A program made the position numbers and the translations under genes. DNA of 64,000 bases from Candidatus Woesearchaeota archaeon. GTDB taxonomy: Archaea; Nanobdellota; Nanobdellia; Pacearchaeales; GW2011-AR1. Below, piece by piece: positions 4,515 through 50,822 of the stretch. The notes beneath the pieces are model-generated. The model saw nothing but the letters and a program-made list of their open reading frames with translations. It had not been told where the DNA came from and made no database searches. The DNA lies in assembly GCA_964545065.1 (NCBI GenBank), contig CAZJEO010000001.1, positions 128,663-192,662 on the forward strand, read 5' to 3'. The first letter of the stretch is position 1. Each line of letters starts with the position of its first letter.

Positions 4515-4676
4515 ATGGTAAAAGAAATAGAAAAACACGGCGAGAAATTTTATCAGTGTGGAGAATGTAAATTTATTTACAAAGATAAAAGTTGGGCTGA
4601 AAAATGTGAAGAGTGGTGTAAAAAGACTAAGAGTTGTAATCTTGATATAACTAAACATGCTATAAATAAAAAATAG
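4515..4676 (+). CDS. small Cys-rich zinc-ribbon-like protein (53 aa, below the ORF-track cutoff)
   Basis: ATG at 4515 immediately after the upstream stop. CGEC...C..WC...C pattern. Confidence 0.35.
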   Translation: MVKEIEKHGEKFYQCGECKFIYKDKSWAEKCEEWCKKTKSCNLDITKHAINKK

Positions 4677-5253: not shown

Positions 5254-7743
5254 ATGAAAAAAATATATAAAATAGAAGGAATTACTTGTGCTAGTTGTGC
5301 TGGGCATATAGAAAGGGCCGTGAAGAAAATTAAAGGTGTAACAAATGCAAGTGTGAATTTTGCTAACAAAAAAGCATATATTGAAGGAGATTTTAATGAT
5401 AATGAGATAAAAGAATCTGTTTCTAAAATTGGTAATTATAAAGCAATATCAGAAGATGAAAAAGATAGTGAGGTTAAAAAAGAAGGAAAAGATTCTGGAA
5501 AAGAACAAACAACGACTTTTACTGTTAAAGGTTTAGATAATCCTCATTGTAGTATGACTGTTGAAAAAGCTGTTAAAAAATTGAAAGGTATTGGTAAGGT
5601 TGATATTAATATTAATACTCACAAGGCTAAAATTACTCATTCAATTCCTAAAGAGGAAATAATCAAAGCAATAAATGATGCAGGTTATGAAGTTTTGAAA
5701 GAAAGTGAAGATGAAAAAGATTCGGAAATTAAAGAGATGAACAAGGCTAAAAAAAGAATGTGGTATGCTTGGATATTTGCTTTGCCTGTTGGTATATTAA
5801 TGATTTTGGAAATGTTCACTAAATTGGAAGTTCCTTATATTGATTATATTTTTGTTTTAGCTGCTATCCCTGTTTTGTTTATTTTTGGTTGGAAGACTTA
5901 TGTTTCTGGGTTGAAGTCTGCAAGGTATCTTGCATTTAATATGGACTTCTTAATTATGCTTGGAACATTTGCAGCATTTATTACTGGGATAATCGGGTTT
6001 TTTCTTCCTATAGAAAATTATGCTGCAATAGCCGCAATGATTATGGCTTTTCATTTGACAGGGAGATATGTTGAAGCTAAGGCAAGAGGGAAAGCATCTG
6101 AAGCTATAAAAAAATTACTTGAGTTGGGTGTAAAAACTGCGGTGGTTATTAGAAATAATTCCCCAAGGGATGACTCCTCAAAGGATGACTCTGGTGAGCC
6201 GTCTGGTGAGCCTAAGGAAATTGAAATTCCTATTTCTGAAGTTAAGATTGGAGATGTGATGATTGTTAAACCAGGAGAAAAGATTCCTACAGATGGTATT
6301 GTTATTAAGGGTGAATCTGCGGTTGATGAATCAATGGTGAGTGGAGAGAGTATGCCTGTTGAAAAAATGAAGAATTCAAAAGTTATTGGAGCTACAGTTA
6401 ATCAAGATGGTGTTTTATATGTTAAGGCGGAGAAGATTGGTAAGGATACTTTTTTGTCTCAGGTTGTTAAGTTAGTTGAAGAGGCTCAAGGAAGTAAGAT
6501 TCCAATACAGGAATTTGCAGATAAGATTACTCGGTACTTTGTTCCTGTTGTTATTGTGGTAGCTGTTTTAACGATTTTCATCTGGCTTGTTTTTCCAGAA
6601 GTAATGCAAAGTATAGCTGGTTTTTTTGACTTTCTCCCTTGGATTAATTTTAATGTTGGGCATGTTGCTCTTGCATTATTTGCTGCAATAGCTGTTTTAG
6701 TTATTGCTTGTCCTTGTGCCTTGGGTCTTGCTACACCAACTGCATTAATGGTTGGTTCTGGTTTAGGAGCTGGGAAAGGTATCTTCATTAGAAGGGGGGA
6801 AGCTATTCAAACAATGAAGGAAATTAAGACTATTATGTTTGATAAAACTGGAACAATAACGAAAGGGAAACCAGAAGTTACAGATATTATTGGAGATGAA
6901 AAGCAGATCTTAAAGATAGCAGGTTCTGTTGAGAGTGTTTCAGAGCACCCTCTTTCTAAGGCAATTGTAAAAAGAGCTAAGGAAAAGAGAATTAAATTGT
7001 TAGAAGTTAAGAACTTTAAAGCTAAGAGAGGTAGAGGAATTGAAGCTAGTTTAGGAAGAAATAAAATTCTTATTGGAAATAGAAAATTAATGACTGAGAA
7101 TAAAATTAGTTTTGAAGGTTATGAAGATAGAATTATAGAACTTGAAAATGATGGTAAGACTGTTATGATTTTATCTGATAATGGCAAAGTTTTAGGGCTC
7201 ATAGCTGTTGCAGATACTTTGAAACAAGATGCTAAAAAAACTATTTCTGAATTAAAAGAAATGGGTCTTAAGACTGTTATAATTACAGGAGATAATGAAA
7301 GAACTGCTAAGGCCATTGCAAAGCAAGTTGGTATTGATTCTGTTTTAGCAGATGTGTTACCTGATGAAAAAATGAAGAAAGTTATGGAGCTTCAGAAGAC
7401 AGGAATGGTGGCTTTTGTTGGCGATGGTATTAATGATGCTCCTGCTTTGAAGCAGGCAAATGTTGGAATTGCGATTGGAACTGGAACAGATATTGCAATT
7501 GAATCGGGAGATATAATTCTTGCTAAGGGTGATTTGCAGGGAGTTGTTTCTGCAATTAAGTTAAGCAAGGAAACATTCAAGAAAATAAAACAAAACTTGT
7601 TCTGGGCTTTTGGTTATAATATTGTAGCTATCCCTCTTGCGATAATTGGAGTTTTGCATCCTGTGATTGCTGAGATAGCAATGGCGACTTCTTCATTGAC
7701 TGTTGTGGGGAATGCTAATCTTTTGAGAAGGAAGAAGATTTAG
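5254..7743 (+). CDS. copA: copper-translocating P1B-type ATPase with two N-terminal HMA domains
   Basis: [13 protein letters not shown] motif, [19 protein letters not shown] and GDGINDAP motifs. 829 aa. Confidence 0.9.
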
Positions 7744-7923
7744 GAAGAGAAGGGAATTTTAATTTGTTGGGAAGGGAGAGGATATAGGAAGAGAGGGAGA
7801 GGGGAATTTATGGATACCAAAATCTTTAATAAATCCTTAAAATAGCAGTTTTAAATTGATTTTATGCGGTTTATCTACAAAAGATAACGATAAATTTATA
7901 AATGCCCTTATCATGAATAATTT

Positions 7924-9162
7924 ATGATAATTGAAACATCTGTGGAAAATTATTTATCGATTAAAGAAAAAGTTACACTTAGCCTTGACTCTGGTTCTAG
8001 CAAAAAACTTTCAAATAATTTAGTAGAAATGCCTAAAAACGAAAGATTGCTCAAGTCTGCAGTAATTTACGGAGCAAATGCATCAGGAAAATCTAACATA
8101 ATAAAATCGGTCTTTTTTATTTGGAACATGGTTAAAAACTCTCACTTATTTAATGTTGATGTAAAAATTCCCCGAGTTCCCTTTAAATTAGAAGAAAGCT
8201 ATCTAAAAAAACCAAGTAAATTTGAGATAATATTTATTCATAATAAAATAAAATACAAATATGGTTTTTCATGTGATAATGATAAATTCATTGAAGAATA
8301 TTTATATTACTGGCCTCAAGGAAGAGAGTCTAAAATTTTTAGTAGAAAAAACTCAAAAGAATTTGATTTCACAATTGATAGAAAACAACAACAATTAATT
8401 AAATCGCAAACAAATGAAAATGTGCTATATCTTTCGAGAGCAACTCAATTAGGATATCAAGGAACCAAAGAAGCTTATGATTTTATAATAAATAATCTTG
8501 TTATAAATTATAGTCCCATGTGGGAAGAGATTACAATTAAAAAAATATATGAAGATAATAAATTAAAAAATAAGATTATTGAAATACTTCAAAAAGCAGA
8601 TTTTGGTGGCATAACAGACATTAAAGTTATCAAAGATAAAAGAAAAGTTGGAGGAATTGAGTTTAAATTTGAAAAAGAAAAGATACTATCCAATCCATTA
8701 AAACCAGAAGAACAAGAATTCTATGATTTCAAATTTGTTCATAAGACTAAAAGTGGAAAATTAATTGATTTTGCATTCAATGAAGAATCTAATGGTACGA
8801 GAAGGACACTCTCCATGCTTGGGCCAATATTTGAAATATTAGAACTAGGAAAAGTCGCATTCATTGATGAATTTGAATTAAATTTGCATTCCAACATTAC
8901 AAAGTTTTTAATAAAACTTTTTAATAGTAAATTAAATAAAAAAAATGCTCAATTAATTTTTACAACTCACGACACAACTTTGTTAGATAATGAAATATTT
9001 AGAAGAGATCAAATATATATTTGTTCAAAAGATAAAAATAACTCAAGTAAATTAAATTCTTATATCGATTACAATCTTAGAGAAGATTCTGACTTTGAAA
9101 GAGCTTATTTAAATGGAAGAGTGGGAGGACTTCCTTTTATAGATGAAACTTTATTCAATTAA
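7924..9162 (+). CDS. AAA_21-type ATPase (AbiLi/RloA-like) of a two-gene module
   Basis: Walker A VIYGANASGKSNIIKS. ABC-like Walker B/D-loop LIFTTHDTTLLD. About 400 aa, the typical partner of RloB proteins. Confidence 0.7.
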   Translation: MIIETSVENYLSIKEKVTLSLDSGSSKKLSNNLVEMPKNERLLKSAVIYGANASGKSNIIKSVFFIWNMVKNSHLFNVDVKIPRVPFKLEESYLKKPSKFEIIFIHNKIKYKYGFSCDNDKFIEEYLYYWPQGRESKIFSRKNSKEFDFTIDRKQQQLIKSQTNENVLYLSRATQLGYQGTKEAYDFIINNLVINYSPMWEEITIKKIYEDNKLKNKIIEILQKADFGGITDIKVIKDKRKVGGIEFKFEKEKILSNPLKPEEQEFYDFKFVHKTKSGKLIDFAFNEESNGTRRTLSMLGPIFEILELGKVAFIDEFELNLHSNITKFLIKLFNSKLNKKNAQLIFTTHDTTLLDNEIFRRDQIYICSKDKNNSSKLNSYIDYNLREDSDFERAYLNGRVGGLPFIDETLFN

Positions 9163-9164
9163 AA

Positions 9165-9770
9165 ATGGTGAGGAAAAGAGGGAGAAAACCCACAAACAAT
9201 CTTTGGATATTTTGTGAAGGTGAAAAAACAGAAATTAATTATTTTAGTAAATTAAAAACGCATGAAAGAATTTCTAGAATTAATATAAAAGTCAAGAGTG
9301 CAGATAAAATTACTGATGCTATTGGAGTTGTAAAATATGCCATTAGTTTTCTTCAAAATAAAAAAAGAGATTTTGAACCTGGTGATTTGATCTATTGCGT
9401 GCTTGATAGAGATGCTAACACAAATCAACATCTAGAAAAGGCATTAAAATTAGCAAACGAGAATGGTATCCTAATTATATTTTCTAACCCTTGTTTTGAA
9501 TATTGGATTCTTTGCCATTTTGAATATTTCATCACAACCTGTAATCCAGATGATATGATTAGAAAATTAAAGAAAAATTTAGGAATATATAGAAAGAATG
9601 ATTCGGATATTTACAAAAAGACGCAAGATAAAATAGCAATTGCGATAAGTAATGCTAAAAAAATTAAAGATACTCATGAAAAAAATGGGATCAAATTAAT
9701 TAGCCGAGAAAGTAATCCTTCAACATATGTTTTTGAATTGATTGAAAAGATTGAAGAATTAAGAGATTAA
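9165..9770 (+). CDS. RloB-like (AbiLii-like, TOPRIM/OLD-related) protein
   Basis: N-terminus WIFCEGEKTEINYF matches the RloB signature (CEGEKTEPNYF). Begins 3 nt after the ATPase stop. Confidence 0.7.
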   Translation: MVRKRGRKPTNNLWIFCEGEKTEINYFSKLKTHERISRINIKVKSADKITDAIGVVKYAISFLQNKKRDFEPGDLIYCVLDRDANTNQHLEKALKLANENGILIIFSNPCFEYWILCHFEYFITTCNPDDMIRKLKKNLGIYRKNDSDIYKKTQDKIAIAISNAKKIKDTHEKNGIKLISRESNPSTYVFELIEKIEELRD

Positions 9771-9797
9771 ATCTCAACACATCTTTTGATCTGCCTT

Positions 9798-11525
9798 TTA
9801 TAAAAAATCTATAAACTTTTTCAATCTAGACCTAATCGCATTTGGTTGCCTCTTAAATATTCTTGCTAATGTTTGAATTGGAACGTTTTTAGAAAACAAT
9901 TTTTTCAATTTTTCATCTTCTTCTTCATTCCAAGGTTCGTAAGCATTTGGAAATTCTTCTTTAATTTGATTTAATCTTTTATGATAATCTGTTTTTATGT
10001 TAAATTTCTTATCCACTATTCTTTTCTTAGCAGGAGTTATTATAGAATCAAGATTATTCTCTTGTGCATGTTTTTTAATAACTTCTAAAAATAAATCTCC
10101 AAATTTTTCTAACTTCTCTTCTCCAACTCCCCAAATTTCTAATAAAGTATCTTTATTTTTTGGGAAACAAGATGCCATTTCTTGTAAAGACTTATTTTGA
10201 AATATTGTATAAACTGGATTTCCATTGGCAAGATCTTTTCTTAAATTGCTTAATTTATTAAATAAATTTTGATCATAATCCCAAGTCATGATCTTTTCTT
10301 TTTCTTTAGTTTTCAGAAAATTGTCTCTCTCTATTTCTGGGAGTTCTAAACAGATATCACAGCCTTCACAATTATTCTCTAAAAAGTTTTCACCAAAATA
10401 TTCTAAGATATACTTTCTTCTACAAAAATTATGTTCGCAATAATCCATCATTTTTCTCAATTGATCTCTGCTCTTCTTTTGAGCAAATTCATCCATGATT
10501 TGTTTAATGAAAAATTCATGTTTCCTTTTATCTCCCCTTGAATAGAATAAAACGCAATCACTTGTAAGACCATCACGCCCAGCCCTACCAATCTCTTGAT
10601 AATAACTTTCAAGTGTTCTTGAAAAAGTATGATGAATAATCAACCTAACATCTGGCTTATCAATTCCCATTCCAAATGCAATTGTAGCCACAATAATATT
10701 TACTTTATTTTTAATAAATGATTCTTGATTCTGTTTTCTTGTTTCATTATTAAGTCCTGCATGGTATGGAAGAGCATTAAATCCATGTTCATTTAACTTT
10801 TGGGCAATATTTTCAGAATCTTTACGAGAAAAACAATAAATAATTATTGATCCATCTTTTTGTTTATTAATTAAATTTAAAATTTTATAGAATGTATCCT
10901 TTTTCTCCGTGACAATTAAATTAAGATTTTTTCTGTTAAAACTTGAAACAAATATTGCTGGATTTTTTAGAGATAATTGTTTTAATATATCTTTTCTTAC
11001 TTTTTCTGTGGCTGTTGCAGTTAAAGCAATTATAGGAATTTTTGGAAAAATTATTTTCAGAAATTTTAAATTTCTATATTCTTGTCTAAAATCATGCCCC
11101 CATTCAGAAATACAATGAGCTTCATCAATAGCAATTAAATTTATTTCCAACCTTAATAAAAATAATTTGAATTCTTCTAAAGCTAATCTTTCAGGAGCAA
11201 TATAAAGAATCTTTGTTTCTTTCTTTTCTATTTTTTCTTGGATATTCTGCATTTCTTCAGGTGATAGTGAGGAGTTAATATATTCAGCATTAATTCCTTT
11301 TATCTTGAGAGCGTCTACTTGATCTTTCATAAGAGAAATAAGAGGAGATATAACAAGTGTAAGTCCTTCAAATTTTAATGCGGGAAGTTGATAACAAAGA
11401 GATTTTCCTCCCCCAGTTGACATAAGGACAAACGTATCTTTCTTTTTGAGAACATTTTTTATAATATCTTCTTGCATTGGTTTAAAGTCATCATGGCCAA
11501 AATATTTCTTTAGTAATGTCCTCAT
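9798..11525 (-). CDS. recQ: RecQ-family ATP-dependent DNA helicase
   Basis: Helicase motifs (GGGKS, DEAH as IAIDEAHCISEWGHDFR). Zn-binding and RQC region (CRRK...CDIC). C-terminal HRDC-like segment. Confidence 0.85.
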   Translation of the reverse strand: MRTLLKKYFGHDDFKPMQEDIIKNVLKKKDTFVLMSTGGGKSLCYQLPALKFEGLTLVISPLISLMKDQVDALKIKGINAEYINSSLSPEEMQNIQEKIEKKETKILYIAPERLALEEFKLFLLRLEINLIAIDEAHCISEWGHDFRQEYRNLKFLKIIFPKIPIIALTATATEKVRKDILKQLSLKNPAIFVSSFNRKNLNLIVTEKKDTFYKILNLINKQKDGSIIIYCFSRKDSENIAQKLNEHGFNALPYHAGLNNETRKQNQESFIKNKVNIIVATIAFGMGIDKPDVRLIIHHTFSRTLESYYQEIGRAGRDGLTSDCVLFYSRGDKRKHEFFIKQIMDEFAQKKSRDQLRKMMDYCEHNFCRRKYILEYFGENFLENNCEGCDICLELPEIERDNFLKTKEKEKIMTWDYDQNLFNKLSNLRKDLANGNPVYTIFQNKSLQEMASCFPKNKDTLLEIWGVGEEKLEKFGDLFLEVIKKHAQENNLDSIITPAKKRIVDKKFNIKTDYHKRLNQIKEEFPNAYEPWNEEEDEKLKKLFSKNVPIQTLARIFKRQPNAIRSRLKKFIDFL

Positions 11526-11547
11526 TAATTTCTAATAATCTCTTCCA

Positions 11548-11565
11548 TTTATACGCTTTTCGATT
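11548..11565. repeat. 18-nt direct repeat TTTATACGCTTTTCGATT (left copy) flanking the HU-like cassette
   Basis: Exact copy at 12625-12642. Confidence 0.6.
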
Positions 11566-11621
11566 CAACCAAAAGTTTTAAATAAGTGGAAGATAAATCT
11601 ATTATCTAGGAAGTATAAAAT

Positions 11622-12521
11622 ATGCTAAGAAAAATACTGCTAATGGGAATTATTGTGATATTTCTCATGTCAATAGTGCCAATAGTATCGGCAATGGAGC
11701 TTACAGGATATTGTGTTAAGTGTAAAGAAAAGACAGAAATGAACAAGGCAGAACTGGTTGAAGGCATAGCCTCGGATGCAGGGTTAACAAAAGCCGATGC
11801 AAGAAGATCCAAATATTCAAATATTGTACTTAAACGAGGCTCAGTTTTTTCTCCTGATAACGGGGAAGACATCCCACAAATGAACAAGGCAGAACTAATT
11901 GAAGCAATTGCTTCATCTGCGAATCTTCCAGAAGCTGATACCGAAAGAGCTTTAGACGCCTTTGTCGGCGCCACTACTAAATCGCTAAGGGGCGGTAATA
12001 GAGTAGCTTTAGTCGGATTCGGTTCTTTCTCAATTTCTAAGCGTAAAGCAAGGACCGGAAGAAATCCTCAAGCAGTTGTAAATGGAGCCGTTAACCCAGG
12101 AATAGAACTTGTAAGAGGAGTTGTAGAATTCAAAGCTGGCGACAGACCTTTTCTGCCTAATGTGGAATATACTACAACAGAAGATATTGCAACAGAAATG
12201 GTCAGTATGAGTCTTAGTGGAGATATCGGCGAACAACAAGGTCTCACCGAAGAACAAGCGAGGCAGTTCATGGACAGTTTCGTAAATGTGACCCTGAGCA
12301 CACTCCAAACAGGAATAGCAGTAAATGTGGGTGAGGATTTTGGAACATTTAGTGTTACATTGAGCAATGCTAAAATTCATGAAACAAAAAATGGAAAAAC
12401 AATTCGGACGCCACCAATAGGACATGTTGACCATGGGAAAGACATACCACTTATAGGTGATAAACTTCAAAAGGTGGTTAAATTCAAAGCTGGCGCAGAT
12501 CTTGCCAAGACGGTGGCTTAG
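11622..12521 (+). CDS. exported tandem HU/IHF-like (DNABII) DNA-binding protein with an N-terminal signal peptide
   Basis: Signal peptide [25 protein letters not shown] truncated HU N-segment ([12 protein letters not shown]) is followed by a full HU domain ([12 protein letters not shown]...LVGFGSF...RTGRNPQ) and a second HU-like domain ([13 protein letters not shown]...GEDFGTFSV...VKFKAGADL). Local GC is clearly higher than in neighbouring genes. Confidence 0.6.
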
Positions 12522-12624
12522 AAGATTTTACTTAAACTCTCACTCTTTCTCCAGTATCAATATCAATTGTATCATAATAAATGCCCAAATTCTTTTGTGC
12601 ATAAATTTCGTAAGCCCAAAAACC

Positions 12625-12642
12625 TTTATACGCTTTTCGATT
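12625..12642. repeat. 18-nt direct repeat (right copy) flanking the HU-like cassette
   Basis: Exact match to 11548-11565. Followed by TCCCCAAGGAATAG, which resembles the mini-element core. Confidence 0.6.
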
Positions 12643-12708
12643 TCAAAGAAAAATCCCCAAGGAATAGAAATAATTTTTTAACTCCCTACTATTTTAACGA
12701 AAGTCTAA

Positions 12709-13112: not shown

Positions 13113-13225
13113 TGAGGAAACCCTTCCCTTCCCAAAACCCTTAAATATCCCCTTCCCCTAAAACAATCATGGCAGAGGCGAAGCTCAATGCATTAAAACT
13201 TGGTTTAGCTGGAGGAATAGTTGGA
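13113..13225. repeat. ~110-nt direct repeat (left copy): CT-rich promoter-like tract plus the first ~19 codons of the 14023 gene
   Basis: About 85% identical to 13966-14082, including ATGGCAGAGGCGAAGCT...GGAATAGTTGGAG. Confidence 0.6.
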
Positions 13226-13309
13226 GTATTACTTCTTTCTACAAATAAACATCGCTCTTCTTTTTTTATCAAAAAAGACGGTTTCAAGAACCTTGAAATC
13301 CTTAGATAA
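13169..13309 (+). pseudogene. truncated duplicate (46 codons) of the small membrane-protein gene at 14023
   Basis: Encodes MAEAKLNALKLGLAGGIVG then diverges to a stop. Its 3' part overlaps the antisense methyltransferase gene. Confidence 0.45.
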
Positions 13310-13921
13310 ACTCTTTTTTATCTTTTCAACAGGATAAATGAACTCATCATATCTATCTTTTTCAATTTGATAAAGACCGCTTTTTACTTTCTTAAAATAT
13401 GTTGTATCCCATGTTAATTTATTTCCATTAACAATCATATTGTCATAAACATATCCTGTTGGAGTTTCTTCAAGTTTTACTGTCTGTTTTTTCATGTCTT
13501 CCAAATGCTTCTGGGTGCGCATATCAAAGATGAATAATCCATTATCGTTAAGATGGTCATAAGAATGTTTGAATGTTGACTCCCAATTTTTGAATGGTTT
13601 AACCTCATTAATACATTCGTGCACTGAAAAAATTACATCAAATTTCTCGTTGATTTTGAAACTATCCATGTTTTGAACAACAAGATTAGCATTAGGGGTT
13701 ATCTTTTTTGCAGTTTTAATGTATTCTTTGTTAAGATCTAATCCAACTTTCTTAAATTTTTTGAAATGAAAAAGTACAACACCTAATCCAACACCGAGCT
13801 CTAAAACTGTTTTGGATTTTGGATGATATTTCCTAATAGCGTTAAGAACTCTATCAGCTCTTACTTTAGCTGCTTTCTTGTCAATATTCTTCTCCCATAT
13901 TTTAGTCAAGTCAGATACCAT
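13229..13921 (-). CDS. class I SAM-dependent methyltransferase
   Basis: Motif I VLELGVGLGVV. About 230 aa with a Rossmann-fold MTase layout. Confidence 0.65.
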   Translation of the reverse strand: MVSDLTKIWEKNIDKKAAKVRADRVLNAIRKYHPKSKTVLELGVGLGVVLFHFKKFKKVGLDLNKEYIKTAKKITPNANLVVQNMDSFKINEKFDVIFSVHECINEVKPFKNWESTFKHSYDHLNDNGLFIFDMRTQKHLEDMKKQTVKLEETPTGYVYDNMIVNGNKLTWDTTYFKKVKSGLYQIEKDRYDEFIYPVEKIKKSLSKDFKVLETVFFDKKRRAMFICRKK

Positions 13922-13965: not shown

Positions 13966-14082
13966 TTTCCTACCCTCTCCTCTCCCAAAACTCTTAAATA
14001 TCCCCTTCCCCATAACATAAACATGGCAGAGGCGAAGCTTAATGCATTAAAACTTGGTTTAGCTGGCGGGATAGTTGGAGCC
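13966..14082. repeat. ~110-nt direct repeat (right copy), the promoter and 5' end of the intact gene
   Basis: See the left copy. Confidence 0.6.
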
Positions 14083-14286
14083 ATCGTGGTCTTTTGTTCT
14101 ACTCTTTTGGGCGTCTATGGATTTTCTCAAGCGGCTGATTCTATGGCTAACACAATGTGGGCGAATTATGGCTATAGTGTAACATGGGGCGGTGCTTTTA
14201 TTGGATTAATAATTGGATTTGCATATGCTTTTGTTTTAGTATGGGTTGTTGCAATGATTTATAATCGGCTTTTGAAGAAGAAATAA
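14023..14286 (+). CDS. small two-TM membrane protein
   Basis: 87 aa. Gly-zipper-like hydrophobic segments. Confidence 0.5.
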   Translation: MAEAKLNALKLGLAGGIVGAIVVFCSTLLGVYGFSQAADSMANTMWANYGYSVTWGGAFIGLIIGFAYAFVLVWVVAMIYNRLLKKK

Positions 14287-23311: not shown

Positions 23312-23383
23312 GGCTCCATAGCTTCCCAAGGGATGACCTCTTCGAGGCCTCAGCCTTTTTCGGTTGCTTCGCAGTCACCATAC
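23312..23383 (+). mobile_element. mini-element copy A: a 12-nt duplicate of the tRNA-Lys 5' end plus a 60-nt GC-rich insert with the TCCCAAGGGATGACC core
   Basis: GGCTCCATAGCT at 23312-23323 repeats the start of the tRNA at 23384. Core at 23324-23338. Together with the preceding AGCTATGG the 5' duplicate forms an 8-bp perfect inverted repeat. Confidence 0.55.
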
Positions 23384-29472: not shown

Positions 29473-32400
29473 ATGGAACATAAACCAATTAGAAAAAAAA
29501 TCGGGGAAATAGGATTTTCATTGCTTAGTCCGGAGATTGTTAAGAAAATTTCTGTTGCAAAGATTGTGACACCTGAGTTGTATAATATTGATGGCTACCC
29601 TGTTGATGGTGGATTGATGGATTTACGATTAGGTGCAATTGACCCAGGGGTTAGATGTAGGACTTGTGGTGGAAGACTGAAAGAGTGTTTGGGGCATCCT
29701 GGAAGCATTGACTTGGCTCGTTCAATAATCCATCTAAAATATGTTCCTCTTATTGAACTTGGGCTTAGGTGCTTCTGTAAAGAATGTGGAAAGCTTATGC
29801 TAACTGATAAATTTTTAGAAAAATATTTGCCTAGTGAAAGAGCAAAAAAAGCTAAGGATGCACGAAAATGTCCGCATTGTGGTATTGCTAATGAGAAAGT
29901 AAAATTAGACAAGCCGACAAGTTTTTTTGTTGGAAAGAAAAGGCTTTTTCCGACGGAAATTAGAGAAATTCTTGCAAAGATTCCTGATGAAGAATTTAAA
30001 AAAATCGGTGTTGATCCTCAGACATGCAGACCAGAATGGGCGATTCTTACTGTGCTTTTAGTTCCTCCTGTAACTGTCAGACCCAGTATTATCCTTGAAA
30101 CAGGGGAGAGGAGCGAGGATGACTTAACACATAAGCTTTCTGATATAATTAGAGCTAACCAGAGACTTTGGGAAAATTTAAATGCAGGTGCACCAGAAGT
30201 CATTATTGAAGACTTGTGGGATTTATTGCAATTTCACATTACAACTTTCTTTGATAACACTGTTACAAGAATTCCTCCAGCTAGGCATCGTTCAGGACAG
30301 CCGCTTAAAACAATTACAGAAAGAATTAAGGGTAAGGAAGGTAGGATTAGGAAGAACTTGGCAGGTAAAAGAGTTAATTATTCTGGTAGAACTGTTATTT
30401 CGCCTGACCCCTCAATACAACTTAATGAAGTTGGAATCCCGTATGAGATTGCGAAAGTTGTTACTGTCTCTGAAAGTGTTACTGATCTGAATCTTAAAAG
30501 ATTGAAGAAACTAGTTGAGAAAGGAGAAGAATATCCTGGTGCGAATTATATTATTCGGTCTGATGGGAAGAGAAAGAAAATTACTCCTGAACTTAAAGAA
30601 GAGATAATTAATGAACTTATTCCTGGTTATAAGATTGAACGACATTTGCAAGATGGGGACATTGTGCTTTTCAATCGGCATCCAAGTCTTCACAGGGGAA
30701 GTTTGATGGCGCACTTTGTTAGAGTTCTTCCTGGAAGGACTTTTAGATTACATCCTTCTGTTTGCATCCCCTATAATGCTGACTTTGACGGGGATGAGAT
30801 GAATATTCACTCTCCGCAGAATGAGGAAGCACGGGCAGAGGCGAAGATTCTTTTGGATGTGAAAGAAAATATTATTTCACCCAAGAATAATTCTAATCTT
30901 ATTGGATGTATTGCTGATGCAATTACTGGAAATTATCTTTTAGGAGAAGATGAAATTATTGGAGATTATGCGAATCAACTATTTTTCAAATCAGGAATAA
31001 AAGCGCACACTACAAAAAAGACAATTACTGGATTGGAAATTCTTTCAGAGATTTTGCCAAAGATTAATTTTTCAAATGGTTCTATTTCAATTAAAGATGG
31101 GAAAATTATTAAGGGTAAGGTTGATAAAAGTGTTTTTGCTGCTGAAGATGGTGAATTAATTAAGGAATTGGACAAGGTTGTTGGAAGGGATGAAACTTTT
31201 GATACAATAAAGAAGGCCTTTAATCTTGGAACTAACTATCTTTCTGATAGGGGTATTACAATTTCTCTTGAAGATTTGGATCTTGATCAGAGTGTTGTTG
31301 ACGAGGGATATGAGATTGTTAAAAAAGCCGAGAAGAAAACAGAAGAAATAATTGAATTATATGAGAAAGGGGAGCTTGAAAGGATTCCTGGAAAAAGTGA
31401 AGAAGAATCTCGGGAAATTGGAATTCTTCAGATTTTAAATGAAGTCAGGACAAAGATTGGGGAGATTGTTAAGGAGAAGTTCCCTAAAAATAATCCTGTA
31501 AGTTATATGATAAAATCTGGGGGTGGAGGAAATATTTTGAATATTACACAAATGGCTTGTTGTGTTGGACAGCAGGCGATGGGAGGTAAGAGAATTGAAA
31601 TTGGTTATAATGATAGAACTTTATCCTTCTTCAAGAAAAAAGATTTATCTCCAAAAGCAAGAGGATTTATTAAAAGTTCTTTTATCCGTGGCTTGAGACC
31701 TGATGAATTTTTCTTTGGTGCAATAACAGGAAGAGATAGTCTTATGGATACTGCGTTGAGAACTCCGAAGTCAGGATATTTGTATAGAAGACTTGCAAAT
31801 GCATTACAGGATTTGAGAGTTGAATATGATGGAACAATAAGAGATAGTAATAATAATATAATTCAGTTTATTTATGGGGACGACGGATTAGATGTTTCTA
31901 GGTTACATACTAAAAAGAAACTTGATGCAGGTGAATCTATTGGGATTATTACTGCGCAGTCTTTTGGTGAACCTTCAACACAGATGGCATTGAATGTTTT
32001 CCACTTTGCTGGTGTTCAAGAAATGCAGGTTACTATGGGTCTTCCGAGATTAATTGAGGTTTTTGATGCAAGGAAAAAGCCTTCTTCTCCGAAGATGGAA
32101 ATTTATTTGAATAAGAATTATGATAATGAAAAAGAAGCCAGGATTCTTGCTGAGAAAATTAAGGAAGTTACATTGAAGGAAATAGCGTCGGAGATTAACC
32201 TTGACTTTAGCAGCAAGTCAATTGAAATTAAGATTGACAAAAAAGGCCTTAAACAAACTCACACTTCAGTAAAGAAAGTTGTTGAAAGATTAAATGATCT
32301 TGGTTTTTCAGCTAAAGAAAAAGTAGATGCTATCACTTTGAATGCTGCTGAATTTAATTTTAAGGAGATTTATCAGCTTAAGGAAAAGTTGAAGAAAACA

Positions 32401-32964
32401 ATTATTTCGGGGGTTAAGGGTGTCCAACAAGTTTTGATTGTTAAGAGAGATAAGAATTTCGTGATTATTACTCTTGGTACAAATTTGAAAGAGCTTATTT
32501 TGTTTAAGGAAGTTGATCCAGACAAAACTATTTCAAATGACTTGTATGAAGTTGCGAAGGTTTTTGGAATTGAGGTTGCACGGCAGTTGATAATCGATGA
32601 GATTTATACTGTTATTAATACTCAAGGATTGGACATTGACATAAGGCACTTGAAGTTGGTTTCTGATGCCATGACTAACACGGGGGATATTAAGGGTGTG
32701 ACAAGGATGGGAATTATCTCTCAGAAGTCTTCGATTTTAGCCAGGGCGACTTTTGAAACTCCTGAAAAACAATTTGTTAATGCTACAATAAAAGGAAGCC
32801 GGGATAAATTGGCTAGTGTTATTGAAAATATAATTTTGAATCAACCTATACCTGTTGGAACTGGACTTCCTGGTTTGTTGGTTAAAGTTGTTGGTGATTT
32901 GACTAAGAAAGATTCTGAAAAGAAAACAGCTGAGAAGAAAGTTGTTGAGAAAGCTAATAAATAA
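29473..32964 (+). CDS. rpoA: DNA-directed RNA polymerase subunit A, apparently unsplit (A' and A'' regions in one ORF)
   Basis: N-terminal zinc ribbons, NADFDGDEMN catalytic loop, bridge helix (SGYLYRRLANALQDL) and trigger loop (GEPSTQMALNVFHFAG) are contiguous with no stop. Confidence 0.9.
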   Translation: MEHKPIRKKIGEIGFSLLSPEIVKKISVAKIVTPELYNIDGYPVDGGLMDLRLGAIDPGVRCRTCGGRLKECLGHPGSIDLARSIIHLKYVPLIELGLRCFCKECGKLMLTDKFLEKYLPSERAKKAKDARKCPHCGIANEKVKLDKPTSFFVGKKRLFPTEIREILAKIPDEEFKKIGVDPQTCRPEWAILTVLLVPPVTVRPSIILETGERSEDDLTHKLSDIIRANQRLWENLNAGAPEVIIEDLWDLLQFHITTFFDNTVTRIPPARHRSGQPLKTITERIKGKEGRIRKNLAGKRVNYSGRTVISPDPSIQLNEVGIPYEIAKVVTVSESVTDLNLKRLKKLVEKGEEYPGANYIIRSDGKRKKITPELKEEIINELIPGYKIERHLQDGDIVLFNRHPSLHRGSLMAHFVRVLPGRTFRLHPSVCIPYNADFDGDEMNIHSPQNEEARAEAKILLDVKENIISPKNNSNLIGCIADAITGNYLLGEDEIIGDYANQLFFKSGIKAHTTKKTITGLEILSEILPKINFSNGSISIKDGKIIKGKVDKSVFAAEDGELIKELDKVVGRDETFDTIKKAFNLGTNYLSDRGITISLEDLDLDQSVVDEGYEIVKKAEKKTEEIIELYEKGELERIPGKSEEESREIGILQILNEVRTKIGEIVKEKFPKNNPVSYMIKSGGGGNILNITQMACCVGQQAMGGKRIEIGYNDRTLSFFKKKDLSPKARGFIKSSFIRGLRPDEFFFGAITGRDSLMDTALRTPKSGYLYRRLANALQDLRVEYDGTIRDSNNNIIQFIYGDDGLDVSRLHTKKKLDAGESIGIITAQSFGEPSTQMALNVFHFAGVQEMQVTMGLPRLIEVFDARKKPSSPKMEIYLNKNYDNEKEARILAEKIKEVTLKEIASEINLDFSSKSIEIKIDKKGLKQTHTSVKKVVERLNDLGFSAKEKVDAITLNAAEFNFKEIYQLKEKLKKTIISGVKGVQQVLIVKRDKNFVIITLGTNLKELILFKEVDPDKTISNDLYEVAKVFGIEVARQLIIDEIYTVINTQGLDIDIRHLKLVSDAMTNTGDIKGVTRMGIISQKSSILARATFETPEKQFVNATIKGSRDKLASVIENIILNQPIPVGTGLPGLLVKVVGDLTKKDSEKKTAEKKVVEKANK

Positions 32965-38524: not shown

Positions 38525-38559
38525 AGTGCAATAATTCTTTTAAAGAATCTTTCTAATTA
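38525..38559 (+). promoter_or_regulatory. 35-nt promoter-like repeat AGTGCAATAATTCTTTTAAAGAATCTTTCTAATTA (copy 1)
   Basis: Exact second copy at 38962-38996, with a partial copy (TAGTGCAATAAT) at 39329-39340. Contains a palindromic TTCTTTTAAAGAA around a TATA-like centre, just upstream of the starts at 38565 and 39004. Confidence 0.5.
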
Positions 38560-38564
38560 TTTTT

Positions 38565-38963
38565 ATGGCGAAAAAAAGTTTTTCATTATCTAAAGACCAA
38601 GTTCCGCTAGGAGTAAAAGTTCATGTCCCTGGAAATTCAAGAGGGATTGTTAAGTTAATTAAAGATTATATTGAATTTGTTTCATTCTATTATGCAGACG
38701 ATGGAGAAAAATTTAATCCTCCAGAAAATGCTAGGTTCTTGCCAAGTGAACAAATTGATTTAGAAGATACTCGAGATAATACAACATATGTCTTGTTGAG
38801 AAGAGGCCTAAAACGAGTAATAAGTATGCATGGCAAATTGCTTGATGATGGTTCTAAATCAAAGAAATTTAGAGAACCAATTTACCCTCGGGGCAAAGTA
38901 AAACTTGCTCAAGTTGGTGGAACATTTTATAGTAGCTATGAATTTGGGCAACCAAAACATTAG
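38565..38963 (+). CDS. hypothetical protein
   Basis: 132-aa ORF preceded by the 35-nt repeat. Confidence 0.4.
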   Translation: MAKKSFSLSKDQVPLGVKVHVPGNSRGIVKLIKDYIEFVSFYYADDGEKFNPPENARFLPSEQIDLEDTRDNTTYVLLRRGLKRVISMHGKLLDDGSKSKKFREPIYPRGKVKLAQVGGTFYSSYEFGQPKH

Positions 38964-38996
38964 TGCAATAATTCTTTTAAAGAATCTTTCTAATTA
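38962..38996 (+). promoter_or_regulatory. 35-nt promoter-like repeat (copy 2)
   Basis: Exact duplicate of 38525-38559. Confidence 0.5.
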
Positions 38997-39003
38997 AATT
39001 AAT

Positions 39004-39309
39004 ATGATAAGCTGGGAAGGATATGCTTTAAGCCTCTGCGAATTTGAGGTTTTAGTAACAGATAAATCTCATAAAAGATATGGGCAGAGAGGAAGGATAA
39101 CAGCACACCATGGTTGTAGGGGAAAAGGAAGTTATGATATTAAATTTGTGGACGACGAGGGAATAGAAGTTGAAGAAGAATTTTCTGGGAAATATGGTGA
39201 TGATCCACAAGGTACAAAAATGTTTTATAGGTATGATAATGATTTGGGAGCGATTTTTGATAAAGAGGGTCGAGGACCAAATAGTTTGGCTAGAGAGCTG
39301 TTGAGGTAA
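39004..39309 (+). CDS. hypothetical protein
   Basis: 101-aa ORF preceded by the 35-nt repeat. Confidence 0.4.
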   Translation: MISWEGYALSLCEFEVLVTDKSHKRYGQRGRITAHHGCRGKGSYDIKFVDDEGIEVEEEFSGKYGDDPQGTKMFYRYDNDLGAIFDKEGRGPNSLARELLR

Positions 39310-39417
39310 TAGAAGAAAAAGAATTAGTATAGTGCAATAATCATAACCAAAACATTTTTAAATCTAAATTATCATTAAATTATATCAAATTTTCTGTTTG
39401 AAAATTTATATATTAAC

Positions 39418-45556: not shown

Positions 45557-45804
45557 CCTTCAAACTAACTATCTTACTAATTCCATCATGCATTTGCAGA
45601 CAACCCGCTGGTTTTCTTTACTCAAGCCCACACTCGTTTCTGTGGATTAGACTCGTGTAAACTCTCGGACTTTCCTCCCCCCAAGGGATGATTCTGGTGA
45701 ACCTCAAAGCATTGAACCCGATTTCTAATGCAATCCGGTGAAATCGCGAGCATGATGGGAATTTATACCTTTAAACTAACTATTTTTGAGATGCCATCAT
45801 GCAT
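45557..45804. mobile_element. mini-element copy B at the smc 3' end: a 37-nt direct duplication encoding the smc C-terminus, flanking a ~174-nt insert with the CCCCAAGGGATGA core
   Basis: DR1 45557-45593 and DR2 45768-45804 (28/37 nt identical). Both translate on the minus strand to MHDGISKIVSLKV-stop. The insert shares GCCCACACTC, CGTGTAAACTCT and the core with copy C. Confidence 0.65.
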
Positions 45805-49963: not shown

Positions 49964-50047
49964 AATAATTGGTGTGTCAGATGACTTTTAAAGTTTTCTT
50001 AATCAAATAATAAAGCTTATAAGTTTAAGATTATATTCTAAAAGTAT

Positions 50048-50129
50048 GCCCAGATGGCGGAGTGGTTAACGCACTAGATTGCTAATCTAGACCCTTCGGG
50101 GTGCGTAGGTTCGAATCCTGCTCTGGGCG
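50048..50129 (+). tRNA. tRNA-Ser (anticodon GCT), type II with long variable arm
   Basis: Acceptor GCCCAGA/TCTGGGC. Anticodon stem-loop CTAGA-TTGCTAA-TCTAG. Variable arm CCCTTCGGGGTGC. T-arm GTAGGTTCGAATCCTGC. Confidence 0.8.
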
Positions 50130-50138
50130 TATATTAAA

Positions 50139-50705
50139 ATGAAATTCATTATTATTCACGGATGTCCTTCAAATGCAGAGAAAGCTATGAGCCCTGAAAC
50201 AAGGACTTATGATAAACATTGGATTCCTTGGACTAAAAGAGAATTGTCTTCAAAAGGAATTGAAGTAGAAACACCCCTTATGCCTGAACCTTGGAAACCA
50301 GATTATAATAAATTTAAAGAGGAATTTGAAAAATATAGTGTTGGAGAAGATAGTGTATTAATTGGTCATAGTTGTGGATGTTCTTTTTTAGTTAGATGGC
50401 TTGGAGAAACAAAACAAAAAATAAATAAATTGATTCTTGTGGCACCGTGGAAAATTGAAGAAGGGGCTAGTGAATCTAAAAAAGCATTTTATGAATTCTC
50501 GATTGATACAACTATCAAAGATAGAGTTAAAGAAATCACAATGTTTACTGCTAATGATGAAGATGAAGATGGGAAGAAAGGTTTGAAAATGTTTCACGAA
50601 GCTTTTGGAGGGAAAATTATTGAACTTCAAGGAAGAGGACATTACACACTGGGGGACATGGGAACAGAAGAGTTTCCCGAATTAATCAAAGAAGCAACCC
50701 AATAA
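50139..50705 (+). CDS. small alpha/beta serine hydrolase (RBBP9/YdeN-like)
   Basis: IIIHGCPS near the N-terminus and LIGHSCGCSF (GxSxG nucleophile elbow). 188 aa. Confidence 0.6.
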   Translation: MKFIIIHGCPSNAEKAMSPETRTYDKHWIPWTKRELSSKGIEVETPLMPEPWKPDYNKFKEEFEKYSVGEDSVLIGHSCGCSFLVRWLGETKQKINKLILVAPWKIEEGASESKKAFYEFSIDTTIKDRVKEITMFTANDEDEDGKKGLKMFHEAFGGKIIELQGRGHYTLGDMGTEEFPELIKEATQ

Positions 50706-50735: not shown

Positions 50736-50822
50736 ATTGCTAATCTAGACCCTTCGGGGTGCCCACGGTTTCCCAAGGAGGGATGACCTCGCTTTGCTCA
50801 GCCTCGAATCCTGCTCTGGACG
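50736..50822 (+). pseudogene. partial tRNA-Ser copy (anticodon loop to 3' end) with mini-element copy D (41 nt, core TCCCAAGGAGGGATGACC) replacing the 5' T-stem
   Basis: ATTGCTAATCTAGACCCTTCGGGGTGC and TCGAATCCTGCTCTGGACG match the tRNA-Ser at 50048 (1 mismatch). The insert at 50763-50803 replaces GTAGGT. Confidence 0.65.

Follow-up and report, generated by a model that had tools for sequence, protein, structure and literature searches.

The window, that is, the whole analysed stretch of 64,000 nucleotides (nt) from contig CAZJEO010000001.1 of a Candidatus Woesearchaeota archaeon, carries a gene for a tandem HU pre-protein of 299 residues at 11622..12521 on the + strand, stop codon included. 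It is enclosed by two exact copies of the 18-mer TTTATACGCTTTTCGATT, at 11548-11565 and 12625-12642. These are the two copies in the window, and the HU gene is the sole gene between them. It was taken from the list of open reading frames (ORFs), and an identical protein is present on ENA, NCBI and Logan contigs. A gene for a RecQ-family helicase, read leftwards from an ATG at 11525, lies on one side of the pair, and a gene for a 122-residue protein on the other. Archaeal markers in the window comprise a fused RNA polymerase (RNAP) B, RNAP A'/A'', aEF-2 and aEF-1alpha, and close RecQ homologues bear the labels Nanoarchaeota or Pacearchaeota, which points to a DPANN-type host organism.

Pfam analysis matched the whole protein to Bac_DNA_binding (PF00216) in three stretches, with 108.7 bits and an E-value of 1.7e-31 (cut-off 22.4). 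Along the chain the following sections can be distinguished, all on the + strand: (i) a predicted Sec-type signal peptide, residues 1-24 (11622..11693); (ii) a 15-residue insert with a CxxC motif (11694..11738); (iii) a partial duplication of the HU N-segment, residues 40-62 (11739..11807), which covers helix 1 and the first part of helix 2; (iv) a 10-residue motif, residues 64-73 (11811..11840); (v) HU domain 1 (HU1), residues 87-176 (11880..12149); and (vi) HU domain 2 (HU2), residues 184-299 (12171..12518).

HU1 is the more canonical half. Its residues 87-151 align with E. coli HU-beta (2o97_B) at 3.4e-16 in phmmer, its identity to canonical bacterial HU is about 60-76% over 62-65 residues, and it retains the arm-base motif R-x-G-R-N-P as RTGRNPQ (residues 144-150). 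HU2 passes PF00216 by itself (33.8 bits, 4e-08, cut-off 22.4) and is matched to HU1 by BLASTP at 2e-06; its beta-arm is elongated to about 38 residues, against about 28 in HU1, and the RNP motif is replaced. Among the best 120 relatives, to which all family counts refer, 76 contain the arm-base motif twice.

A Foldseek search with the full-length model was swamped by the disordered N-terminus, and residues 85-299 were re-modelled instead. This AlphaFold2 (AF2) model has a predicted TM-score (pTM) of 0.73, with a per-residue confidence (pLDDT) above 90 in both cores, and the HU order of secondary structure appears in both halves (helix-helix-strand-strand-arm-strand-helix for HU2). In Foldseek it matched HU chains with TM-scores of 0.82-0.86 and root-mean-square deviations (rmsd) of 1.0-2.7 Å, the engineered single-chain IHF 2iif_A over 213 aligned columns, and the sea-urchin doublet-microtubule protein 8snb_1K (TMt 0.56), which we take to be a tandem HU of the CCDC81 type. 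Structure prediction had been proposed as a check by the first-pass annotation, made from the letters alone, which described two HU/DNABII folds in one chain with a longer arm in the second; HU folds were obtained, and Pfam, AF2 and Foldseek agree on this description. The HU folds and their single-chain arrangement are clear in the predicted structure: two HU domains stand within one chain of 299 residues, unlike the dimer of separate subunits of about 90 residues.

The partial N-segment duplication, also recognized at first reading, is real: residues 40-62 duplicate residues 87-109 and match only positions 1-23 of the Pfam profile, and at the DNA level an exact 19-nt repeat is found at 11737/11878. 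The 15-residue insert is missing from the closest homologue, P0002, in a pairwise alignment, and its match to DUF5679 is weak and below threshold. The 10-residue motif, (P)GRVKYSN(I/V)(T/V)LKRG, recurs in the arms or linkers of related exported HUs and is present in P0002, P0003, P0004, P0006, P0244 and P0254; P0006 carries four GHVTVLKR copies in tandem. Sub-threshold matches of this motif to the T4 gp19 tail-tube family PF06841 were noted in P0004 (E 1.7e-4, 21.9 bits, cut-off 28.2) and P0244.

The N-terminus of the pre-protein consists of the n-region MLRK, a core of 18 hydrophobic residues and the segment P-I-V-S-A|M, where the bar marks the predicted cleavage site; V-x-A occupies positions -3/-1, and the maximum 12-residue hydropathy is 3.32. 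By a heuristic sequence check, the features of a substrate of the Sec pathway and signal peptidase I are present: a positively charged n-region, a hydrophobic h-region and a small-x-small site. A class III (prepilin) signal was rejected by inspection, the position just ahead of the hydrophobic core being neither glycine nor alanine. In the five closest homologues (P0002 to P0006, 38-72% identity) the N-terminal layout is equal, with sites such as ALA|MNKAEL and ITA|MNKAEL, and the predicted cleavage falls exactly at the HU N-terminus. The signal peptide proposed at the outset is thereby upheld as a sequence layout, and this layout is common across the family.

The search for relatives returned hundreds of 'HU family DNA-binding proteins' from Halobacteria, 200-250 residues long and all of them tandem HUs; the design also occurs in some bacteria. 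A twin-arginine translocation (Tat) motif S-R-R-x-V-L-R (SRRTVLR), a Gly/Ser/Thr-rich h-region and A-x-A were identified in 79 of the best relatives and Sec-type peptides in 13, the other 28 beginning at or just ahead of MNKAEL. In 71 of the 120, small-x-small stands directly ahead of M-N-K-A-E-L, the native HU N-terminus. Relatives seemingly devoid of a signal peptide are start-codon miscalls: P0027 is a shortened call of the Halorubrum protein P0025, the two being listed on a contig of equal length, and the DNA upstream of P0011 (L047, 2880-3000) encodes MNHDPTHRVDISRRTVLRKGAVVSALLGVGLPLATGHAVA|MNKAEL, i.e. a hidden Tat peptide. In about a quarter of the haloarchaeal tandem-HU family, the public annotation places the start at the Met inside the chain that opens MNKAEL and so hides an in-frame Tat peptide. 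Predicted signal peptides are a family-wide feature.

The inter-domain linker holds a conserved Cys pair in 78 of the 120, and the more distant Sec-type members found by an exhaustive search have Cys-rich D-x-D-C-D-G linkers. At an E-value of 1e-30 or better only four clusters at 50% identity were obtained, which indicates that the DPANN subfamily is small. The family as a whole is a large, uncharacterised clade, Tat-type in Halobacteria and Sec-type in DPANN-like archaea and some bacteria. In PADLOC the HU itself matches no defence family.

The hydrophobic segment may be understood differently, as the uncleaved transmembrane (TM) helix of a cytoplasmic protein whose HU domains tether the nucleoid to the membrane. 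Its length of 18 hydrophobic residues would suit this, and Burroughs et al. 2017 suggested nucleoid-membrane tethering in one sentence, the passage in PMC5499826 describing halobacterial HUs as 'fused to N-terminal TM helices' and so reading their N-terminus as a TM anchor. Several features of the family argue against such an anchor: the twin-arginine consensus in 79 of the best relatives, h-regions of low hydropathy (1.6-2.3) and rich in Gly, Ser and Thr, which would make poor TM helices, A-x-A placed exactly at the HU N-terminus, and the Cys pair or Cys-rich segments of the linker. Positive charge on the N-side of the hydrophobic segment moreover predicts an N-terminus inside and a C-terminus outside. 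A cytoplasmic, membrane-anchored HU is thus considered very improbable, and export is preferred.

For an exported protein, the ligand has to be considered. Haloarchaeal mature chains of the family are basic (pI 9-10.6). Haloarchaeal proteins are typically acidic, so that a basic pI is unusual there and would be expected of a protein that binds a polyanion. The HU scaffold could, however, have been repurposed after export for a ligand other than DNA, such as a protein partner, a glycan of a cell surface or some polyanion besides DNA, and could act in adhesion or in contact with a host. This would suit the DPANN subfamily, in which HU2 is without RNP and its long arm is idiosyncratic, and the pI of 6.4 of the window protein after cleavage; it would suit the recurrence of the motif at residues 64-73, the Foldseek likeness to doublet-microtubule inner proteins, presumably of the CCDC81 type, and the argument in the cited passage of PMC5499826 that some HU clades took non-DNA roles. 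On the other hand, HU1 keeps the full R-T-G-R-N-P-Q and its high identity to canonical bacterial HU, and most relatives are strongly basic and keep two canonical arm bases. We consider a non-DNA ligand unlikely, and binding of DNA is preferred.

The base composition of the HU gene had been named as a feature of the proposed cassette. The gene is indeed GC-rich: its GC content of 0.413 exceeds that of the window (0.326) and of every other ORF among the 50, and this part of the claim stands; its use as a cassette mark does not. By codon position the GC content is 0.533 (GC1), 0.407 (GC2) and 0.300 (GC3), and GC3 lies 1.1 standard deviations above the ORF mean and is exceeded by other genes. HU homologues elsewhere are GC-rich relative to their hosts as well (0.403 against 0.303 in L003, 0.378 against 0.332 in L006). 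The excess resides in codon positions 1 and 2 and is common to the homologues, which attributes it to the Ala/Gly/Arg-rich HU protein and not to recent foreign origin; with GC3 within the genome range and homologues equally GC-rich relative to their hosts, a recent foreign origin by GC is ruled out.

The exact 18-nt direct repeat that was reported at 11548 and 12625 is present, and it is improbable by chance: 100 Markov shuffles of the window give an expected number of 0.02 for exact repeats of at least 18 nt within 2 kb. On the minus strand the 18-mer reads AATCGAAAAGCGTATAAA, a putative B recognition element (BRE) with a TATA element. Upstream regions in the window share the pattern RAAAG-N2-TTTAWAAAT, about 22 nt and ATG, which we read as the leaderless archaeal promoter design. 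The left copy (11548..11565, - strand) would drive RecQ, its TATAAA being separated by 22 nt from the RecQ ATG. Behind the right copy (12625..12642, - strand) a 20-codon ORF, MHKRIWAFIMIQLILILEKE and a stop codon, starts 22 nt after the TATA and converges on the 3' end of the HU gene (12540..12602, - strand); it is conserved neither in L003, a contig with the closest HU homologue, nor in L044/L045, and is probably vestigial. The HU gene has a BRE/TATA-like element of its own, GGAAGATAAATC (11588..11599, + strand), which is centred about 26 nt before the ATG, fits the genome-wide geometry and lies in the block conserved in L003.

With the 122-residue right-hand neighbour as probe, two metagenomic relatives, L044 and L045, were found. 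They match window 13073-12620 with 94-97% identity, stopping at 12620 just past the right repeat, and their copies at 692 (L044) and 3317 (L045) are orthologous to that repeat. The comparison identifies the 18-mer as the central part of a longer module, TTTTGTTTTGAATCGAAAAGCGTATAAAGGTTTGGGAGTTTTGGGAGRGG(T)ATG, which measures about 55 nt and has two copies in the window, three in L044 and two in L045, seven in total and each before a different gene. The genes that follow are RecQ, the 20-codon ORF, the 122-residue unit, a NUDIX gene, a DUF4145 gene and a 7-codon stub with a 94-residue gene behind it, and the spacing from TATA to ATG is 21-22 nt. In the two window copies the core is followed by 15 unrelated nt and then by a common GAAATTWATG, a recurrence that looks like conservation of function and not like a recent duplication. 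An exact repeat of 35 nt, AGTGCAATAATTCTTTTAAAGAATCTTTCTAATTA, at 38525-38559 and 38962-38996 (with a partial third copy near 39330) precedes two consecutive small genes, 38565..38963 and about 39005..39310, and is a further case from this genome of a promoter module used again without change.

In the first-pass annotation the two 18-mers bracketed a single-gene cassette. On this view a mobile segment of 1.1 kb would have been inserted with duplication of the 18-nt site or recombination at it, and the repeats would be attachment (att) sites or a target-site duplication. The improbability of the repeat speaks for this view, as does the slot after the right copy, which is occupied by different genes in L044 and L045. 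These observations are met by the BRE/TATA core in seven copies before unrelated genes and by the GAAATTWATG that recurs after unrelated nucleotides; the GC excess, which sits largely in codon positions 1 and 2 and is common to the homologues, speaks against the cassette too, and no recombinase was found in the window. A recombinase or transposase was sought in the locus Pfam tables and the other window ORFs, with no result; an integrase such as the IntI of an integron cassette array was likewise not found there, and by eye no obvious inverted repeats were seen in the module, whereas attC sites are imperfect palindromes with an R' core GTTRRRY. The 18-mer gave 30 single matches in GTDB genomes, all in unrelated bacteria and at about chance level for 596 Gb, and Rfam reported only three tRNAs in the window and nothing at the repeats.

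The extent of the conserved HU unit can be measured against a different genome. The block shared with the HU locus of L003/L004 covers 11587..12556 (+ strand) at 82-86% nt identity in blastn and takes in the gene together with its promoter and some 35 nt of 3' sequence. Its two ends fall 22 and 69 nt short of the repeats, and in L003 the gene is not enclosed by repeats, so that the proposed boundary by 18-mers does not hold. This closest homologue (72% amino acid identity overall, 86% nt identity over 757 nt) is placed between a Mucin2_WxxW protein and a tyrosine recombinase, and a mobile cassette could draw support from the latter. In this region (L003 10001-20863 / L004 969-11831) the recombinase is split in L003 and intact, with 268 residues, in L004. 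In both contigs the HU homologue lies 2-3 kb upstream of a type-IV-pilus-like cluster of a T2SSE ATPase, two T2SSF and six small ORFs, which may be connected with DNA uptake. The window and L003 also have a TrmB-like gene in common, with an identity of only 59%; the far greater likeness of HU may mean that the HU unit was passed from one lineage to another, which a cassette would also explain. Synteny and flanking repeats in all relatives would have counted against the first proposal, but the HU gene is not syntenic in relatives: those with a RecQ 78-81% identical have RadC upstream, not HU, again a point in favour of a cassette.

The segment that demonstrably varies is a defence-island-like locus of 4.9 kb, not 1.1 kb. 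By blastn, tblastx and PADLOC a strain-variable island was delimited at 7736..12619 (about 4.9 kb), which contains HU together with AbiLi, AbiLii and the RecQ-family helicase. Collinearity of L044 and the window is seen at the 3' end of a heavy-metal ATPase gene (90%) and at the 122-residue gene (94%), and between these flanks all differs (window 7736-12619 versus L044 711-4571), with NUDIX, DUF4145 and alpha/beta-hydrolase genes in L044. The AbiLi/AbiLii pair (AAA_21 + RloB) occupies 7924-9770 inside the island (PADLOC 3.7e-87 and 4.4e-28). When an empty site was looked for, L044 and L045 were found to share the right flank and the module and then to continue with other genes; the 122-residue gene, one module and RecQ in succession was not seen among L044, L045 and the RecQ relatives, and a RecQ-based search of genome contigs for a related locus gave no match. 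L044 carries at 2310-2397 a second copy (81%, versus 4572-4659) of the last 88 nt or so of the heavy-metal ATPase gene, which suggests an att-like duplication and serial insertions at the 3' end of that gene. Taking both sides together, a 1.1-kb mobile cassette is judged to be improbable, and the repeat appears to be a reused, lineage-specific promoter module (BRE-TATA and leader) before unrelated leftward genes rather than a cassette boundary.

A likeness to the core of a mini-element had also been pointed out after the second repeat, and it holds for 11 nt only. The core YCCCAAGGRAT occurs five times on the + strand, at 6161, 12655, 23324, 45679 and 49819, against 0.06 expected; the copy at 12655 shares nothing past 11 nt with the four other sites, and TCCCCAAGGAATAG (12654..12667, + strand) is a single copy, kept in L044/L045 as 3' flank of the 122-residue gene. 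A variant of the core is found near 50775, several copies lie near tRNA genes, and two exact copies of the 17-mer CTTCCCAAGGGATGACC stand at 23322 and 49817. Rfam gave no match at the two sites near 45679 and 49819.

Other repeats and gene fusions were noted elsewhere in the window. The segment of tRNA-Ser(GCT) from the anticodon loop to the 3' end (50047-50130) is repeated about 660 nt downstream at 50736-50820 with a 35-nt insert, the two bracketing a 188-residue Ser_hydrolase ORF (50139..50705); ARAGORN and Rfam call no tRNA at the second copy, which may represent either a duplication of the att kind or a tRNA of unusual or split form. A 104-nt repeat (13123-13226 and 13977-14080; 80% overall, core nearly identical) comprises the promoter and the first 19 codons of a holin_4-like gene of 87 residues (14023..14286); it is duplicated across a methyltransferase gene (13229..13921, - strand), with a truncated ORF of 46 residues at 13169. 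RNAP subunits A' (residues 5-821) and A'' (residues 808-1132) are fused in one ORF of 1163 residues at 29473-32964, and subunit B is likewise a single ORF of 1086 residues. In archaea A' and A'' are usually encoded by separate genes.

The proposed mechanism is as follows. The pre-protein would be exported by Sec, and signal peptidase I would cut after VSA(24). In the mature chain the HU domains at residues 87-176 and 184-299 would fold together as an intramolecular 'dimer' whose two beta-arms are unequal, which would amount to a DNABII protein outside the cell that is single-chain by nature. Such a protein would bind and bend extracellular DNA (eDNA) at the cell surface or in the matrix, with capture or scavenging of eDNA or matrix scaffolding as possible uses. 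A DPANN cell may employ it for nucleic-acid scavenging, attachment or DNA uptake, and Halobacteria for matrix building or for eDNA as a nutrient (see PMC3929857). Its gene, with its own promoter, would be placed in opposite orientation between two module copies within the 4.9-kb variable locus. Cleavage, extracellular location and DNA binding are what we infer. The explanation as a whole, a Sec-exported single-chain DNABII protein that binds eDNA, together with a reused promoter module in a variable island, is held with moderate confidence to be the probable one.

Several points weigh against it. The 18-residue h-region could serve as an uncleaved signal anchor, with the HU domains still facing outward. 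DNA binding is made less certain by arms with pLDDT below 50, along with the absence of RNP in HU2 of the DPANN subfamily and the pI of 6.4 already named. Neighbourhoods of haloarchaeal and DPANN homologues show no conserved partner genes and give no pathway clue. Finally, the 18 exact nucleotides shared by both copies are more than a promoter consensus demands, and a duplication tied to an insertion event is possible as the origin of the repeat.

As a wider and more tentative hypothesis, for which we would claim less than an even chance, Halobacteria (Tat), DPANN archaea (Sec) and some bacteria would encode a dedicated exported single-chain DNABII 'extracellular nucleoid protein', by which eDNA would be organised or captured for matrix building, for nutrients or for uptake, and the promoter module, with breakpoints just after it, might mark an integron-like gene-capture site in the DPANN lineage. 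Archaeal integrons have been described (PMC9668308). In bacterial biofilms, HU/IHF outside the cell is considered an almost universal structural partner of eDNA. A widespread clade of DNABII proteins made for the extracellular space, with the export signal in the gene and the dimer fused, would be a clean and genetically tractable case, and the haloarchaeal hosts would make Tat-dependence testable. If true, the hypothesis would extend this idea to archaea and would bear on the use of eDNA as a nutrient source in hypersaline habitats and on the supply of nucleic acids to DPANN cells with reduced genomes. More generally, when short exact repeats enclose a gene, they can be promoters used more than once and need not be the ends of a mobile element.

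Compared to canonical HU/IHF (DNABII, PF00216), both halves of the window protein have the equal fold, a helical body and a beta-ribbon arm. The canonical proteins are of about 90 residues, cytoplasmic, dimers of separate chains and free of signal peptides, whereas the window protein is a single chain of 299 residues with unequal domains, an extra partial N-segment and a predicted cleavable export signal. Two HU-type domains in one chain that form one DNABII-like body are also known from the engineered scIHF2 (PDB 2iif/2iie) and the tandem HU-CCDC81. However, scIHF is artificial, with another chain connectivity, and is not secreted, and the CCDC81 type has truncated arms, is intracellular (centrosome or axoneme) and is not secreted either. 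ComEA-type competence receptors are small exported or anchored proteins with non-sequence-specific binding of double-stranded DNA outside the cytoplasmic membrane. The analogy to ComEA is functional only, the fold (helix-hairpin-helix) being unrelated. No uptake machinery was found beside the HU gene of the window, and the closest HU homologue, in L003/L004, lies 2-3 kb from its type-IV-pilus-like cluster.

The DNABII proteins (HU/IHF) of bacterial biofilms, which outside the cell bind and stabilise eDNA (PMC6011942), are alike in location and role to what is proposed here. They are, however, the usual proteins of the cytoplasm, which get out through lysis or along a route resembling a type IV secretion system (T4SS) or ComE, whereas the genes described here bring a predicted export signal of their own. 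The halobacterial HUs of Burroughs et al. belong to the same family as the haloarchaeal relatives described above; in contrast to the anchor reading, export is favoured by the Tat motif, by the position of A-x-A where HU begins, by the topology and by the Cys pair, and the passage in PMC5499826 does not discuss the tandem single-chain architecture or the DPANN members. In the literature on secreted, tandem or archaeal HU only this passing remark and no characterisation paper was found; the family is already annotated as HU and was noted once, and its export, single-chain design and DPANN spread are undescribed. The repeat, in turn, resembles the promoter reuse by putative mobile promoters reported in the abstract of Nijveen et al. 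2012 (PMC3575422), where near-identical upstream sequence precedes non-homologous genes. The module of the window matches that account in its near-identical regions, functional spacing and non-homologous genes. In contrast to the abstract, the copies here cluster in one hypervariable archaeal locus, with breakpoints just after the module.

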